From NCBI GenBank assembly GCA_038227875.1, contig JBBRPR010000077.1, positions 1 to 37,979 of the forward strand: a stretch of 37,979 nucleotides of DNA, given 5' to 3'. The stretch is from Planctomycetota bacterium. GTDB taxonomy: Bacteria; Planctomycetota; SZUA-567; H5-PLA8. Shown here piece by piece: positions 1-5,502 of this stretch (position 1 is its first letter; every line of letters starts with the position of its first letter). The notes under the pieces were generated by a model, which did no database searches, was not told the origin of the DNA, and was given only the letters and a program-made list of their open reading frames with translations. The position numbers and the translations under genes were made by a program.

Positions 1-139
1 CAAAACTCCGCTGCCGTAACCTCTCCCATGTGGCGTATCCTTTCTGCCCCGCTGTGGGGGCTTTGGTGTTCCTTTGACAGATCACCAAGGATACGCCGCA
101 CTTTTCCTCCCGCCCAATCCACAAGATTTGACAATACCC

Positions 140-595
140 CTAGAAATAGTACGGCCAGCCGTAATAGATCTGAGTGCCGTGTTCATCCTGAGCCGACAGG
201 AAATGAAATGGGGAGGGAAAACAATTCAGGAAGAGAACCAACCCGCACGCCAGCGTAATCACGATCAGGGTAGCTAAGTGTACTTGCCAAAATCCCCGTT
301 GGTGCGGCTCGTCGACTGCGTATCGGGACCCTTCAGCAACCTCTCGCTTTCGAATAATTTGCTCGAGTGCCAGCGCCGTAATACCAATCACAATGACGTC
401 AAGCATGATGCATACAAGCGGATTCGAAGGCGGATGCTCGTAGGCAATATTGACGAAACCGCTGAAATGCGGCACAAAAAACCAGTTAATGCCACGTAAG
501 TTCATCGGCACCAATAGGCCCCATTCAATTAACAGAATTGCAAGCGTACTAAAATGTATCTGCCAAAACCGCCGCTTAGGCCATTCCCTATTCAC
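140..595 (-). CDS. Membrane protein of the RRxWFQIHLSTL family; two fused units, second possibly truncated
   Basis: GTG at 595 overlaps the upstream TAG (588-590). Unit 1: KRRFWQIHFSTLAILL-TM...TM-LEQIIRKRE. Unit 2: RGFWQVHLATLIVITL-TM...YYGWP, then TAG before the expected second TM. Confidence 0.65.
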   Translation of the reverse strand: MNREWPKRRFWQIHFSTLAILLIEWGLLVPMNLRGINWFFVPHFSGFVNIAYEHPPSNPLVCIMLDVIVIGITALALEQIIRKREVAEGSRYAVDEPHQRGFWQVHLATLIVITLACGLVLFLNCFPSPFHFLSAQDEHGTQIYYGWPYYF

Positions 596-944
596 GCGGC
601 ACCTTGCTTTCATGCGTTCGGGATGAAAGCTTTTGGGATATGAACAATAGTAAAAAGTATGGGGCACACGTAGCGACTAGCCAAAACAATGTATTTAACG
701 CGACATGCAAGAAAAATCGCTCAACTTCAACCTTCCTTTTAATTGTAAGATCAGCATTGGCAACTCCACTATATGTCTGAAAAGGCGTTCCAAAGTAGCA
801 TATCTGTCCTTCATGCCTAATCGGCCGTGCTCCAATTTGTCGTTCGACACACATTTCTGCAGCTAATGAAGCTCCGACCAAAGATAATATAATCAACGTC
901 GAAAGGTTTATTTGAAACCACCGTCGGCGCGGAGACTCAGTCAT
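588..944 (-). CDS. Small two-TM membrane protein, RRxWFQIHLSTL family
   Basis: MTESPRRRWFQINLSTLIILSLVGA; YFGTPF at the YGWP-equivalent position; second TM near the C-terminus; ATGA overlap with the upstream gene. Confidence 0.75.
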   Translation of the reverse strand: MTESPRRRWFQINLSTLIILSLVGASLAAEMCVERQIGARPIRHEGQICYFGTPFQTYSGVANADLTIKRKVEVERFFLHVALNTLFWLVATCAPYFLLLFISQKLSSRTHESKVPRE

Positions 945-1123
945 CGGCGCTTTACCTCGCGACGGCGGGCGGCCCGAAGGCCTTTCCGAGTAATGTAAAT
1001 CTTTTTGGGTTTATATACTTCCAGTTGCTCAACCAGGACGCAGTTCGTCTCCCACAATTTTTCAACAATGCGTTCAAGTTCCTTGATTCTCTTCCGCAAT
1101 GTGTTGATTTCTGACTGTTTCAT
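941..1123 (-). CDS. Small basic coiled-coil hypothetical protein
   Basis: 60-aa ORF coupled by ATGA overlaps at both ends; heptad pattern INTLRKRIKELERIVEKL; ends ARRREVKRR like its neighbours. Confidence 0.6.
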   Translation of the reverse strand: MKQSEINTLRKRIKELERIVEKLWETNCVLVEQLEVYKPKKIYITRKGLRAARRREVKRR

Positions 1124-1389
1124 GGCCTGCGGCCCTCGCAGCCGCGGCGGATCAGCAACTCACAGCCGACAACAAAGAGTATCAAGCAGCCGCCCTGAAA
1201 CAGCGCCAGCCTGAGAGTTTCGTTTTGCGCGTAACGTTGCCAATTTCGCCTGTGCTGCCCTTCAGGATCACGCGAAATTTCCCGATAGTAGCGCAGGTCC
1301 GCATAAATCATTCCGCCCGCAATTAACGCTGCGATAAGCAGGGTCGAAAGATGAAGTTGGAACGGAGGCTGCTTCGGTGTGTCGCTCAT
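1120..1389 (-). CDS. Small two-TM membrane protein, RRxWFQIHLSTL family
   Basis: KQPPFQLHLSTLLIAALIAGG...TM...CELLIRRGCEGRRP; ATGA overlaps at both ends. Confidence 0.75.
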   Translation of the reverse strand: MSDTPKQPPFQLHLSTLLIAALIAGGMIYADLRYYREISRDPEGQHRRNWQRYAQNETLRLALFQGGCLILFVVGCELLIRRGCEGRRP

Positions 1390-1748
1390 CGCTTGCAGCC
1401 CTCGCGGCGGCGGAGGAGGGATTCGGTGGCATATGCAACTGCAAAGAGAGTCAGAGCGAGAGCCCCGATGTTTTCAAACAGCATGAAATAATTCAATAAG
1501 TAAACATCTGCTCCAATCGTGAACATCTGCGTCGGCCACCCTATAATAAAGTTGATCGTTAATTTCCCATCCGGAAAGAACGTCAGCATTTTGCTGCTCG
1601 GGAATCCTGCCTCAAAAATATCTATGCGAGATTGTTCAATCCTCCGTTGATGGATGTTGGCGAGAATGAATCCTCCCGCCGCAATCATCATCAGCACTGC
1701 CGTCAGCAGATGGAACCTGAACCACGAGCGCCTGGGGCTGGAGGTCAT
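1386..1748 (-). CDS. Small two-TM membrane protein, RRxWFQIHLSTL family
   Basis: PRRSWFRFHLLTAVLMMIAAGGFILAN...GWP...TM...ESLLRRREGCKR; ATGA overlaps at both ends. Confidence 0.75.
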   Translation of the reverse strand: MTSSPRRSWFRFHLLTAVLMMIAAGGFILANIHQRRIEQSRIDIFEAGFPSSKMLTFFPDGKLTINFIIGWPTQMFTIGADVYLLNYFMLFENIGALALTLFAVAYATESLLRRREGCKR

Positions 1749-2650
1749 GGCCTGTGGAGCTCGTTCGCGTCCTGATACGCGTCGATCATTACGGGAATCG
1801 CACCGTCGCCAATACTGGTTAGGCCTTTAATGGCCGGAATATAATCCAGAGTAATCGCAGCGGTCTTAGTCTTGAGGTCCATCGCCATGATTTGTGCCGC
1901 ATCAGCGGCCTCGGCACAGGAGGGATCGATCATTGCCAAGGCATACGCCGCAGCGCTCGAAACGAGATGCGCAAGCCCCTTGCGCTGCTCATCATTGATA
2001 GTCTTTTCGAATTTAAGGAAGGGAATGATGACAGGAACGGCATCCTTCGCGTCCGGACCAATATTGCCGAGCGTTTGAATTGCTTCGGACAATTCCATGG
2101 ATTCAAAATCGGCAACGGAAAGCAATGCGATGATCGCCGGAACGGCATCCTTTGCCTTGGGTCCCATCATTGATAACGCTTCCAGTGCTTTTCTACGCGT
2201 AAGTACATCAGATCCACTGGCAAGTGTACCTGCCAGCCCCTGCACAGTTTTTGGAAGGTCACAATTGATAATATGCAGTCCATCGCGGCCAATCAAGAAG
2301 TCGCTCGAATCTGGATTTCTAAGCGCGGCGACGAGCGCCGGAATCGCCTTTTTTCCTAAGTGTGTCAACGCTTCGGCCGCCGCCAACCGTACCTGCACGT
2401 CGGAGTCACGCAGTAGTCGGATCAGTTGGGGAGCGGCAGGCTCTGCCGTGGATGCATTGAGCGATTTAATGGCTTGCATGCGAACGACTGCATCACTGCT
2501 TGAGAACGCAGAAGCGGGTGCGTTCTCTGGTTTGTCTACATCGTGGCGGCGCAACACTGCCACGATAAATAACAATCCCACCCCTGCGAAAATCGCAATT
2601 GCAGTCTTCAAGGTTACCTGACCAACCCATTTCTGTTTCTTTTCGACCAT
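1745..2650 (-). CDS. Membrane-anchored HEAT/PBS-lyase-like repeat protein, possibly C-terminally truncated
   Basis: N-terminal TM (TAIAIFAGVGLLFIVAVL); repeats LIRLLRDSDVQVRLAAAEAL, MGPKAKDAVPAII, IGPDAKDAVPVII. ATG 2650 chosen because it lies 7 nt after TGGTACAAT. Confidence 0.8.
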   Translation of the reverse strand: MVEKKQKWVGQVTLKTAIAIFAGVGLLFIVAVLRRHDVDKPENAPASAFSSSDAVVRMQAIKSLNASTAEPAAPQLIRLLRDSDVQVRLAAAEALTHLGKKAIPALVAALRNPDSSDFLIGRDGLHIINCDLPKTVQGLAGTLASGSDVLTRRKALEALSMMGPKAKDAVPAIIALLSVADFESMELSEAIQTLGNIGPDAKDAVPVIIPFLKFEKTINDEQRKGLAHLVSSAAAYALAMIDPSCAEAADAAQIMAMDLKTKTAAITLDYIPAIKGLTSIGDGAIPVMIDAYQDANELHRP

Positions 2651-2657
2651 GCGCAGG

Positions 2658-2666
2658 ATTGTACCA
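2658..2666 (-). promoter_or_regulatory. Extended -10 (TGnTACAAT), probable leaderless promoter for the HEAT gene and downstream array
   Basis: Minus strand reads TGG TACAAT CCTGCGC ATG; no Shine-Dalgarno sequence. Confidence 0.5.
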
Positions 2667-2710
2667 CCTCCCACACCTCCGGCTATCTTTTCCCAGCCCT
2701 AGCGCCGCCA

Positions 2711-2811: not shown

Positions 2812-3348
2812 TCATGACAGGACGTTTGGACGGAGCAGCGGCAGGTATTTTTCACGACCATGCCGTTGAACAAATTCGACGTAACTTGCATCGCAGAGTG
2901 CTGGATGACCGGGCACGGCATAGGGCGATGCCGATTCGATGAGTTTACATGCGGCAACGGGTTCGATGCCGCAGGCGACAAAGTAGAGCGACAGGATTGT
3001 CGGAGATCGGTTTATACCGGCGTGGCAGTGTACGAAGATTTTGCTTCCTTCCAGCATGAGTGATTGATGAATGGCGTCCAGACAATCGAGCAGCACGGGC
3101 TTTGGGATTAGCCTGCCGTCCACGATTGGCTTCCAGACGATTCCCGAAAATCCCATCTGCTTGAATAGCTCGGCGTCCAAATAGGGTAGGTCAAAATTGA
3201 AAAGATGCGTGACCCCACCTGCTCGAAGCAACCGGCAATCCGTCTCATCGGGATAGCCGCCCTGAGCGATGGCCCGCGTGATCCAGTAGATGCCGTTTTC
3301 CTCGAACGTCTTGCGAGTCGGAGGCATTGAATTTTCATCGTCGTCCAT
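2812..3348 (-). CDS. Dual-specificity/tyrosine phosphatase family protein
   Basis: Catalytic loop IFVHCHAGINRS (HCxxGxxR) and acid-loop-like WKPIVDG; start placed at ATG 3348. Confidence 0.85.
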   Translation of the reverse strand: MDDDENSMPPTRKTFEENGIYWITRAIAQGGYPDETDCRLLRAGGVTHLFNFDLPYLDAELFKQMGFSGIVWKPIVDGRLIPKPVLLDCLDAIHQSLMLEGSKIFVHCHAGINRSPTILSLYFVACGIEPVAACKLIESASPYAVPGHPALCDASYVEFVQRHGREKYLPLLRPNVLS

Positions 3349-3412
3349 GATCCGCCGTTCTACCTCCCTTCCGCTACTTCGGCCATCTATTCCCGGCCAT
3401 CGCGTCCAGCCG

Positions 3413-3463
3413 CCGCCTCCAGCATTCGCCCGCATTCATGCTAGAATGCGGCCATGCGCCTGT
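3413..3463. repeat. 51-bp exact direct repeat, copy 2
   Basis: Identical to 2711-2761 (offset 702 bp); contains inverted repeat CCGCATTC-N6-GAATGCGG and the start codon of the FGE-domain gene. Confidence 0.95.
3439..3447 (+). promoter_or_regulatory. Extended -10 (TGnTAGAAT), probable leaderless promoter of the FGE-domain gene
   Basis: TGC TAGAAT GCGGCC ATG (ATG 3454, 6 nt downstream); no Shine-Dalgarno sequence. Confidence 0.5.
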
Positions 3464-4494
3464 TGCCGCTCATCGTCATCGTGCTGGCCGGATCGCTGGC
3501 CGCGTCTGAGCCTGCACCCGCCTATCCGCTTTGGGACGGCGTGGAGTCCGTGGCCGACTACGCCAAGAAAGTCAATCTGCCGCCTACGAAGACGCTGGAC
3601 CTCGGCAACGGCGTGAAACTCGAACTGCTGCTGATCCCGGCTGGGAAGTTTGTCATGGGGACGCCGGAGCACGAAAAGCCTGTGATCGGACAATCGATGA
3701 CGGGGATCAGCGGTGGCATCCTTCTTCTCGTGGTGGCGGTCTGGTTGATCCGCGCCCGGCGTAACCGGAAGCGGCCTCAGTTCTCAATGGGGTTGATGCT
3801 AGTGATGACGTTTGTGGCGGCGATTGGCGTCTGGGGCGGCGTGCGTTGGAACGATGCCGTGAAACACCCGGACGATTTTCCAGCCGAACATCCGGCGCAC
3901 CCGGTGACGATGACCCAGCCATTCTATATGGGGAAGTACGATGTAACGCAGGAACAGTACCAAGCCGTGATCGGGACGAATCCCAGCCATTTCAAAGGCC
4001 AGGACAACCCGGTCGAGACGGTTTCATGGGATGATGCGCAGGCGTTCTGCAATAAGGTGACTGAGCAAACAAAAGCTGGCGTTCGATTGCCGACCGAAGC
4101 GGAGTGGGAGTATGCGTGCCGAGCGGGTACTACAACGGAATTCTATTCCGGCGACTTGGAGTCTGATTTGGATCGCGTGGCGTGGTATGTAGCGAACAGC
4201 AAGGGCACAACTCATCCGGTTGGGCAGAAGGAATCCAATAAATTTGTGCTGTACGACATGCACGGCAACGTGTGGCAATGGTGTCAGGACTGGTACGGTG
4301 AAGATTACTACTCCAAAGCTCCAGCTGAAAATCCGCAAGGCGCGGATCATAGTGCCTCGCGTTTGTTGCGCGGCGGTTCGTGGAAGTTCGGTCCCATGAT
4401 CTGTCGGTCGGCTCGCCGCCTCAGGCGCGCTCCGGACTACCGCTACGATGTCATTGGTTTCCGGGTGGTGGTGCCTGCGTTCAGGACGCCCTGA
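3454..4494 (+). CDS. Exported FGE-sulfatase (SUMF1/CLec-fold) domain protein with inserted TM hairpin; candidate DGR target
   Basis: Signal peptide; motifs IPAGKFVMG, PVETVSWDDA, RLPTEAEWEYACRAG, LYDMHGNVWQWCQD, RGGSW...GFRVV; two-TM insert after FVMGTPE. Confidence 0.9.
   Translation: MRLLPLIVIVLAGSLAASEPAPAYPLWDGVESVADYAKKVNLPPTKTLDLGNGVKLELLLIPAGKFVMGTPEHEKPVIGQSMTGISGGILLLVVAVWLIRARRNRKRPQFSMGLMLVMTFVAAIGVWGGVRWNDAVKHPDDFPAEHPAHPVTMTQPFYMGKYDVTQEQYQAVIGTNPSHFKGQDNPVETVSWDDAQAFCNKVTEQTKAGVRLPTEAEWEYACRAGTTTEFYSGDLESDLDRVAWYVANSKGTTHPVGQKESNKFVLYDMHGNVWQWCQDWYGEDYYSKAPAENPQGADHSASRLLRGGSWKFGPMICRSARRLRRAPDYRYDVIGFRVVVPAFRTP
4360..4494 (+). repeat. Candidate DGR variable repeat VR1
   Basis: Aligns with 4869-5006; scaffold codons are identical while intervening codons differ mostly at positions 1-2. 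Confidence 0.55.
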
Positions 4495-4496
4495 CC

Positions 4497-5006
4497 ATGC
4501 GCAACCCCTCGCCCATTCACATTCGCGTTTCGCTACTCGTCGTACTCACGACAGCCTGCTCAATCGCCCACTGCGCCGAGTCCCAATACCCGCTCTGGGA
4601 CAACCACGAATCCATCGCTGACTACGCCAAACGCGTCAACCTCCCGCCGACGAAGACGCTGGAACTGGGCGACAACGTGAAGCTGGTTGCCTGGTATGGC
4701 GGGAACAGTAAGAACACATCGCATCCTGCTGGTCAGAAGGAGGCGAATGTATTTGGGCTTTACGACATGCACGGCAACGTGTGGCAATGGTGTCAAGATT
4801 GGTTCGATAGTGACTACTACTCCAAGTCACCGGTCGAAAATCCGCAAGGCCCGGATCATGGTGCTTCCCGTTTGTTGCGTGGCGGTTCGTGGGGCGACAT
4901 CCCCTTGGCCTGTCGGTCGGCTTTTCGCTTCAGGTGCGGTATGGGGCAACGCTACTACATCTTCGGTTTCCGGGTGGTGGTGGTGCCTGCGTTCAGGACG
5001 CCTTGA
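4497..5006 (+). CDS. Internally deleted paralog of the FGE-domain gene (signal peptide, N-cap and C-terminal third)
   Basis: YPLWDNHESIADYAKRVNLPPTKTLELGDNVKL is joined in frame to VAWYGGNS; the equivalent of residues 57-241 of the upstream paralog is absent. Confidence 0.75.
   Translation: MRNPSPIHIRVSLLVVLTTACSIAHCAESQYPLWDNHESIADYAKRVNLPPTKTLELGDNVKLVAWYGGNSKNTSHPAGQKEANVFGLYDMHGNVWQWCQDWFDSDYYSKSPVENPQGPDHGASRLLRGGSWGDIPLACRSAFRFRCGMGQRYYIFGFRVVVVPAFRTP
4869..5006 (+). repeat. Candidate DGR variable repeat VR2
   Basis: See VR1. The 3' tail GGTTTCCGGGTGGTG(GTG)nCCTGCGTTCAGGACGCCYTGACC is nearly identical in both genes. Confidence 0.55.
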
Positions 5007-5055: not shown

Positions 5056-5325
5056 AACAAAAACCCCTGCACGCAACAGCATCACAAAGTGCGCCTCATG
5101 CATATCCTGTATTATAAAATCTTTTTTACTAATTTTAAATAAATCACTTGACTTTTGCGTTCAATGACCGCTTATATAGTATAGGAAATTATGCGATGCT
5201 TCTCTTCATACCGAATATGTGCGCGAAACGGCACCGCCATTACCGACTTCTCGCCGGACTTGAATTTGAAACCGCAAGAGCGCCCCGCACGCCCCCAGCG
5301 CCCTGAAAAGGAGACCCCCAACGAT

Positions 5326-5353
5326 GTAACATTTTGTAACATTCCGTAACATT
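5326..5353. promoter_or_regulatory. Three phased GTAACATT direct repeats (10-bp period), putative protein-binding site
   Basis: GTAACATT at 5326, 5336 and 5346, upstream of asd. Confidence 0.55.
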
Positions 5354-5502
5354 GCACCTGGGGCGGGATCCCGCGGGTCGCATACCCCACTCAATCCGCA
5401 ATCCAAAAGCCCCCAGTTGAATTCCACCCATTTCCCGATAACGTGGCCAGACTCTAAACGGGCTCTGTGAAGCTCAAGGATCAAGGAAGGGAGTAGACAG
5501 TC

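Follow-up and report, generated by a model that had tools for sequence, protein, structure and literature searches.

Tandem coupled genes of a hairpin membrane protein family in Planctomycetota, with conserved ends and diverged loops

We analysed a 37,979-nt stretch of DNA, here called the window, which is contig C77 (JBBRPR010000077.1, forward strand) of a Planctomycetota metagenome assembly (GCA_038227875.1; GTDB lineage SZUA-567, H5-PLA8). The assembly, labelled G000, is 88% complete and holds 9.34 Mb in 176 contigs at 59.6% GC. Our subject is an array of small genes at positions 140 to 1748, which an earlier reading of the letters alone (the original prediction) had described as a cassette-like array of membrane proteins with conserved ends and unrelated cores. 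The array probably consists of tandem, coupled paralogues of an undescribed inner-membrane hairpin family, with ends homogenised by recombination and loops that have diverged. C-numbers denote contigs of G000, and G001, G003, G004, G010 and G015 denote genomes of relatives. The comparison set has one genome per species, and arrays lie at contig ends.

A HEAT-repeat gene on the minus strand has five overlapping small open reading frames (ORFs) behind it, and these carry five copies of a unit (1+1+0+1+2). The unit is laid out as a basic N-tail with a WFQxHLST-like motif, a first transmembrane helix (TM1), a loop, a second helix (TM2) and an ExLLRRRE tail. Stop and start codons overlap as ATGA at 1745, 1386, 1120 and 941, in agreement with the five coupled ORFs and five copies first described. 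The locus would be an operon tail of tandem, translationally coupled paralogues. Its features are listed below; E values come from profile hidden Markov models (HMMs).

1..140, no strand: end of a multi-copy repeat, which cuts the array (from DNA matches and read depth)
140..667, minus: last gene, in which units 4 and 5 are fused in one frame; the former is complete and the latter has N-motif, TM1 and loop as far as YYGWPYYF
588..944, minus: unit 3 gene, 118 aa; family model E 2.1e-21
941..1123, minus: orphan ORF, 60 aa, between two junctions; ends RRREVKRR
1120..1389, minus: unit 2 gene, 89 aa; HMM match over model positions 1-63, two hydrophobic segments
1386..1748, minus: unit 1 gene, 120 aa, canonical; family model E 1.7e-29
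1745..2674, minus: HEAT-repeat gene, 309 aa; PF13646 E 6.9e-17
1386..1412, minus: junction 1 (unit 1 C-tail codons, ATGA, unit 2 start)
1120..1146, minus: junction 2 (unit 2 C-tail, ATGA, orphan ORF start)
941..967, minus: junction 3 (orphan ORF tail, ATGA, unit 3 start)

The family definition that we tested comprises the N-motif, two TM helices, a GWP turn, and an acidic residue with an arginine cluster at the C-end, and this combination is present in the window. Units 1-3 fit through the family model and units 4-5 as N-only matches. The unit 1 gene carries WFRFHLLTAV, IIGWP and ESLLRRRE and has 33 homologues among public proteins (31-98% identity). The unit 2 gene has a short loop and the C-tail IRRGCEGRRP. 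The unit 3 gene is AT-rich (GC 0.43), with a degenerate turn (YFGTP) and a degenerate C-tail. The last gene has three hydrophobic segments and N-only family matches at 140-307 and 140-580. Judged by the usual N-tail of 8-10 residues, it probably starts at GTG 595 or ATG 613, which gives an overlap with the preceding gene of 8 or 26 nt, respectively. The orphan ORF has no hydrophobic segment, no homologue among the ORFs of G000 or in 20 relatives, and weak Pfam matches of coiled-coil type (E at least 0.08).

The last unit lacks TM2, as had been noticed, because the multi-copy repeat at 1-140 cuts its frame: the stop codon of the last ORF sits exactly on the repeat boundary. Over 138-140 nt, the repeat shares 97-100% identity with the ends of C114, C73 and C93 and with copies on C151 and C111. 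In all, five other contig ends and two internal copies were listed, and in the internal copies the match stops at the same base. Read depth in the source run is 244 over the repeat and 13.1 over the array. The missing helix is therefore a truncation by insertion and no design feature. No transposase was found in the ORFs beside two copies of the repeat; we did not adopt the label of insertion sequence for this reason and call it a multi-copy repeat. It contains a 14-nt inverted repeat (29-42 / 87-100). Other, different multi-copy repeats adjoin family arrays on C28, C24 and C97 and cut units there. Of the 47 family loci in G000, four are no more than 165 nt away from a contig end made of multi-copy repeat, where our own arithmetic gives about 0.3 expected.

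Contigs from four sequencing runs were compared with the array. Those of the source run include a 2,629-nt piece that spans 112-2740; the joints among them are paralogue junctions that cross-map (sides of 25-53 nt). Contigs from the runs of other samples gave short pieces only, which are silent on rearrangement either way.

The prediction had called for a genome-wide count of the N-motif and the junction. An HMM of the N-motif, run on six-frame ORFs of G000 at E <= 1e-3, gives 67 matches in 47 loci: 38 single, four double and three triple loci, the four-gene row of the window and a seven-gene array on C28. A full-length model places 93 domains on 84 ORFs; 57 of them are full units, 25 match at the N-end only and 11 at the C-end only, and several of the partial units are frameshifted or truncated copies. 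Among 31 genomes of relatives, 15 match; the 16 of the same family include 14 that match, and the 14 of other families include none. Matching same-family genomes carry 12-92 matches each, and G000 carries 79. In a sample of 201 genomes from the phylum (E <= 1e-5), five match: G000, all three others of the same family, and one of 197 others with a single match. This near confinement to one Planctomycetota family suggests an invention of the lineage. A profile search of 1.84 billion cluster representatives returned 5,025 at E <= 1e-3 and 2,560 at E <= 1e-10, and its top 29 rows are chains with 2-4 units each.

Searches for a name were negative. A credible Pfam match was obtained for 0 of 75 family members, PDB sequence matches numbered 0, and searches of PADLOC and PHROGs gave no match, i.e. 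no defence or phage family. A protein-atlas search returned only unnamed Planctomycetota clusters, and literature searches found no description of such a family. In alignments of 37 and 75 members, the near-invariant positions are M1, R7, W9, H13, L14, T16, A17, G25, G70, W71, P72, E109, R113-115 and R118. By these sequence comparisons the unit defines a real, unannotated protein family. The family is new; the evolutionary process that it shows is already known.

The tails of the four unit-bearing genes have a net charge of 0 to +4, except for the C-terminal stretch of the truncated last ORF (-2), which is loop remainder. The two loops measured have charges of 0 and +2. By the positive-inside rule, these values would make both tails cytoplasmic and the loop periplasmic. 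AlphaFold2 models unit 1 (pLDDT 80.1, pTM 0.65) as a helix at 14-32, four short strands around the GWP turn and a helix at 87-118, with a low-confidence insert at 38-65. A natural two-unit fusion (pLDDT 84.4, pTM 0.64) repeats this helix-sheet-helix module twice. The periplasmic part may therefore be a small membrane-proximal beta-sheet with a GWP turn and a variable insert. Foldseek gave 0 matches to the PDB at E <= 0.001. The best Z scores of a wide VIA-align search were 6.7 (one unit) and 7.3 (two-unit model), below the noise level stated for the tool; a resemblance to the TM pairs of P2X or Mrs2 was discarded as generic helical pairing below that level. A complex prediction for units 1 and 2 scored 0.00 and weighs neither way.

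The claim that the loops share no similarity holds in part. All-against-all, only two pairs of loops are alignable among 58 proteins of G000, and the window's loop DNA is matched nowhere else in that genome. The (Y)GWP turn, however, is nearly invariant family-wide, although it is present in two of the five window units and degenerate in others. Because the turn is common to them, the loops are better seen as diverged homologues around a small core than as unrelated inserts. The suggestion that loops are more AT-rich is weakly borne out: family cores have a GC of 0.523 and the ends 0.549 and 0.565, but the whole family (0.537) is itself below the long ORFs of the genome (0.613). One ORF of G000 (C2:179372-180013) has a family-type N-end and C-end around a 150-aa loop that looks Ig/PKD-like by eye, and loops may be able to host whole folded domains.

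A junction is made up of one gene's C-tail codons, the stop/start overlap and the following gene's N-tail codons. All four junction strings read as originally quoted, and repeat finding groups those at 1120, 1386 and 1745 as a 19-nt family with 84% identity. With up to four mismatches allowed, we count 18 occurrences of a 24-nt junction core in the 9.3-Mb genome and none in a reversed-sequence control. The array DNA of the window matches the rest of the genome only at 912-967, 1371-1428 and 1655-1748, which are junctions and the first N-end. Junctions on C28, C22 and C29 match junction 1 at 86-92% over 44-56 nt, and the 3' junction of the orphan ORF is 87.5% identical over 56 nt to one on C97.

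We compared codon identity at identical residues to separate conservation of DNA from that of peptide. Family-wide (54 proteins), it is 0.372 in the N-end, 0.331 in the core and 0.359 in the C-end, where codon usage predicts 0.394, 0.417 and 0.386; synonymous sites are thus at chance. In the array subfamily (11 G000 members), it is 0.538 in the N-end and 0.641 in the C-end versus 0.386 in the core. The eight codons of E-x-L-L-R-R-R-E reach 0.737 in 13 G000 members, against a simulated 0.40 +/- 0.039 (2,000 runs from codon usage; maximum 0.576). CGC encodes 35 of the 39 tail arginines of these members, versus 52% genome-wide. Because of this excess, the objection that the junctions are no more conserved than the RRRE peptide requires fails for the array subfamily of G000; family-wide it does not.

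The same mosaic is clearest in G015, which has 14 units in four arrays with TM1 and TM2 nearly constant throughout. Four-fold sites are 75.6% identical in the N-end (n=1,308) and 57.4% in the C-end (n=938), where chance gives 35%. Loop DNA aligns at 0.686 versus 0.681 when shuffled. Each G015 array has its own synonymous signature.

Ends that are far more alike than the peptide needs, beside loops that cannot be aligned, point to gene conversion or unequal crossing-over at the ends of the array subfamily. A silent divergence of about 0.3 in the ends implies that unconstrained loops would be about three-quarters identical, yet the loops are unalignable, and so ends and loops appear to have separate histories. 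Arrays would expand and contract through tandem duplication, unequal crossing-over and deletion between homologous ends. Conversion and crossing-over would begin in the conserved ends and halt in the diverged loops. Purifying selection on the peptide and, inside a genome, gene conversion would keep the ends similar, while loops would drift or diversify until unalignable. By-products would include in-frame fusions of 2-4 units, frameshifted or truncated copies, junction remnants on neighbours, and rare chimeras. Interlocus gene conversion of tandem prokaryotic paralogues leaves the same traces, namely synonymously near-identical segments beside unalignable ones, and array signatures. Here, by comparison, the homogenised parts are two short ends (about 30 codons each) of genes of 90-180 codons, there are 12-92 matches per genome over many loci, and the variable part differs in length too.

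Recent events give a closer view of turnover. The tandem pair C28:101652 / C28:102047 has a loop dS of 0.275, inside the range of its ends (0.177-0.475), a dN/dS of 0.49 and two indels in 69 loop codons. Ordinary duplication evidently occurs too, and in such pairs loops can diverge in step with the ends. A strain variant of the unit 1 gene (P0001, at 98% identity) has changes only at residues 5, 6 and 8, which looks like a short conversion tract. The best match of one G015 protein is 46-52% in three same-genus genomes, compared with 55-62% for its home paralogues. The flank of a six-gene G015 array is present in three same-genus genomes (71-74% nucleotide identity), and two sister species have no units within 8.7 kb of it. 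Since synteny stops at the flank in all three, the array is non-conserved; the route of gain or loss is not shown.

One unlikely alternative is that the junction excess marks the ribosome-loading region of the next gene, i.e. translational coupling and not recombination. The window has four ATGA overlaps, GAGG lies about 10 nt before the ATG of the canonical junction, and the C-end excess (0.641) exceeds that of the N-end (0.538). But three of the 13 tails have no ATGA-coupled family gene behind them and still use CGC CGC CGC GAG (C24_1084, C61_29216 and C12_180717, the last with a family gene behind it at a longer overlap). In G015 the four-fold excess extends through the whole of TM1 (31 codons, as far as 90 nt from the start), and stop and start do not overlap. 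Singleton members have no conserved upstream sequence.

We give a similarly low probability to bursts of tandem duplication with fast, positively selected divergence of the loops and no gene conversion. Arrays of up to seven units, the two indels in the recent pair, and the lack of a matching-loop orthologue for the G015 protein (52% at best versus 55-62%) all fit such bursts. Against them, the recent pair has a loop dS no higher than its ends and a dN/dS of 0.49. With an end dS of about 0.3, even neutral loops would align, yet they equal shuffled DNA. The three clustered N-tail changes of P0001, with none elsewhere, are also at odds with a process lacking conversion.

The prediction had proposed that the junction is a dedicated recombination or capture site, at which integrase-free cassettes insert, excise or swap units or foreign ORFs. 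We consider this quite unlikely, and judge it probable that no dedicated gene-capture system operates here. Several observations do recall cassettes. The 18 junction cores, absent from the control, are followed by a family gene (11), remnants (three), unrelated ORFs at an ATGA (two) or unrelated sequence (three, at 3-4 mismatches). One remnant is a 12-codon 'empty' ORF that runs from its start straight into the C-tail, junction to junction. The two unrelated ORFs are the 60-aa orphan of the window and an 89-aa ORF that ends the C28 array. The HEAT and GT4 glycosyltransferase genes that lie upstream of two arrays both finish with [AG]GCC-ATGA, which only 12 of 659 other ATGA overlaps have. The idea that both the orphan and the HEAT gene end in related junctions holds for the orphan; the HEAT gene, whose final codons (ELHRP and stop) and overlap are junction-like and form a copy of junction repeat D1 (1745-1763), is related over only about the last 19 nt. 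We read the two gene ends as putative deletion scars, in which a neighbour was fused to the last codons of a lost unit. The absence of the six-gene array beside its syntenic flank in two same-genus genomes would also suit cassettes, as would a chimera on a pilin-like body, described below.

Other evidence speaks against capture at the junctions. No recombinase or integrase domain was found by Pfam among 42 window ORFs (7 + 35, chosen at about 60 aa or more), nor among 21 neighbours of other arrays and two FGE-like ORFs of the window. An HNH endonuclease gene (PF01844, E 2e-6) occurs at a single array, between two members of a three-gene array on C12. Twelve junctions folded as RNA gave z scores of -2.18 to +1.61 (one of 12 below -2) and no common hairpin; folded as DNA (91 nt), they gave -1.49 to +1.24 (none below -2) and no common structure. 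Repeat finding showed no inverted repeat at the junctions. Junction sequence and geometry vary by genus, with ATGA in G000, G001, G003 and G010, GTGA in G004, and TGA, three nucleotides and ATG in G015. Synonymous sites are at chance family-wide. Copies have no loops in common, and with only two alignable pairs the proposed shuffling of loops among copies is not borne out. The ends do behave as recombination substrates, as their synonymous excess indicates, but the junction is not a site of its own. The notion of an integrase-free cassette array is borne out only in part: remnants, unrelated ORFs and the chimera give it some footing, and the lack of an attC-like hairpin and of shared loops speaks against it. 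The junction-linked oddities fit sloppy homologous and illegitimate recombination in a repeat-rich array.

It is highly improbable that the proteins are precursors whose leader and follower ends are cut off to release the middle as a secreted peptide or protein: conserved ends, a hypervariable middle and many copies per genome are also the layout of precursor families of RiPPs (peptides made on ribosomes and modified after translation), and a TM helix with an arginine cluster resembles C-terminal sorting signals, but arrays have no recurrent modifying enzyme, protease or transporter beside them, the two ends are modelled as TM helices of full length (pLDDT 81-94 per ten-residue block), and fused proteins of 2-4 units are common.

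Some points weigh against homogenisation of the ends among tandem paralogues as we have set it out. Gene conversion is read from patterns, and part of the C-end excess could come from constraint on translation initiation. Two unrelated ORFs sit exactly behind junctions, compatible with a dedicated process, and two unrelated upstream genes share the rare ending given above. The sole measurable loop dN/dS (0.49) is relaxed, not positive. On function, no constant neighbour gene and no match to a defence or phage family offers guidance.

We also compared the arrays with known systems. The rAID-1 arrays of Bacteroidales (bioRxiv 10.1101/471110) are described as long small-gene arrays with repeated sequence between genes, skewed GC and a repertoire acquired stepwise; they have a conserved XerD-family recombinase, repetitive intergenic sequences and homology to known immunity genes. 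On that description, our arrays are alike in being long rows of small genes with repeated sequence at their boundaries and skewed GC, and differ in having no recombinase found, overlapping genes instead of intergenic DNA, a single family and no known relative. At the array heads examined we found HEAT, GT4 glycosyltransferase, LVIVD-repeat and FGE-sulfatase genes and others unassigned, and no XerD-family recombinase; the Pfam and PADLOC results above likewise give no immunity relative. Integron cassettes were rejected for want of an IntI-type tyrosine recombinase in the scanned ORFs and of an attC-like hairpin or inverted repeat at junctions. Targets of diversity-generating retroelements were set aside too: the scanned window ORFs have no reverse transcriptase domain, the window's loop DNA is unmatched in the genome, and loop lengths differ. 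RiPP precursor arrays were dismissed since no modifying enzyme, protease or exporter recurs and neighbours differ by locus.

Type IV pilins and pseudopilins share with the family a short basic leader, an aromatic residue and a long hydrophobic helix. The family has W9 or R before F10 and not Gly at -1, L or S/T with no acidic +5, a second TM helix and no pilin domain match. Membership was rejected because the class III signal (Gly -1, Phe/Met +1, acidic +5) is missing. By motif, 35 ORFs elsewhere in G000 have genuine prepilin-type N-termini. One array member, C28:102478-103020, has a family N-end on a pilin-like body (47% over 129 aa to an ORF on C1, E 1e-35), which aligns with prepilin-type paralogues of G000 from residue 1-12 onward. 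By its sequence, this gene is a natural chimera.

The neighbours of arrays vary by locus and include HEAT, GT4 glycosyltransferase, LVIVD, FGE-sulfatase, HNH and GAF/PAS cyclase genes. In the window, the HEAT protein has one N-terminal TM segment (hydrophobic residues 25-41) and no orthologue in 20 relatives, where the best matches (35-40%) cover the repeats only. A direct repeat of about 91 nt (2677-2765 and 3377-3467; 89% identical, central ~60 nt identical) has one copy immediately upstream of the HEAT gene and the other over the starts of a phosphatase-like gene and a divergent FGE-like gene. It contains the palindrome GCATTC-TAGCAT-GAATGC, its 25-nt core occurs at only these two sites in the genome, and it may be a shared operator. 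The phosphatase-like gene (2812-3435, 207 aa) lies upstream of the HEAT-array operon with the same repeated upstream element, and has a weak dual-specificity phosphatase signature (PF00782 E 3.4e-6, under the gathering score).

Two FGE-sulfatase-domain paralogues (PF03781) follow at 3454-4494 and 4380-5006, and G000 has at least 33 such ORFs. By eye, the 346-aa protein has a signal peptide, then two hydrophobic stretches with an Arg/Lys-rich segment between them, then the FGE domain. One G015 array has an FGE-sulfatase gene directly upstream. A link to these paralogues was not adopted, as three of 33 lie within 2.5 kb of a unit versus 1.1 expected (P ~0.10, not significant). Short repeats of about 100 nt at 5083-5360 have 77-93% matches on more than 20 other contigs and are REP- or MITE-like intergenic repeats. 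Elsewhere the window is ordinary chromosome, with asd, argF, argJ, rplM and a phosphorylase-like gene.

The RIFIN, STEVOR and PfMC-2TM proteins of Plasmodium falciparum are encoded by many paralogues, with conserved ends and two TM segments around a hypervariable loop; they are exported to the host cell surface and tied to immune evasion. The hairpin family resembles them in layout only, since they are eukaryotic and unrelated in sequence; this is an analogy and not membership. Conservation in the hairpin family is limited to membrane-interface residues of the hairpin, the arginine clusters and the GWP turn, which suggests that the common job lies in the scaffold (insertion, self-assembly or docking). 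The constant hairpin may be a membrane-inserted scaffold, perhaps docked to a common partner, that presents one different periplasmic loop per copy. The loop either gives specificity or is merely tolerated. A periplasm-facing repertoire for recognition or protection (immunity-like) is our best but tentative suggestion, and we give almost the same probability to a structural role in the envelope, in which the loops would be unconstrained. A true diversifying repertoire, with the constant scaffold serving as homology arms and loops renewed faster than by neutral drift without a dedicated recombinase, seems unlikely.

This family, of more than 5,000 clusters (50% identity) and 12-92 copies in each genome, takes a visible share of the small genes in its genomes, and it has no name, Pfam model or solved relative. 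A family model would give a name to thousands of 'hypothetical proteins' and account for assembly breaks in these genomes. The pattern of two speeds is remarkably clean, which makes the family a good natural case for bacterial gene conversion and birth-and-death evolution. If the loops bind something, the family would be a new kind of periplasmic recognition repertoire. If it is a diversifying one, each cell would carry tens of periplasm-facing modules, a counterpart of the 2TM variant families of eukaryotic parasites.

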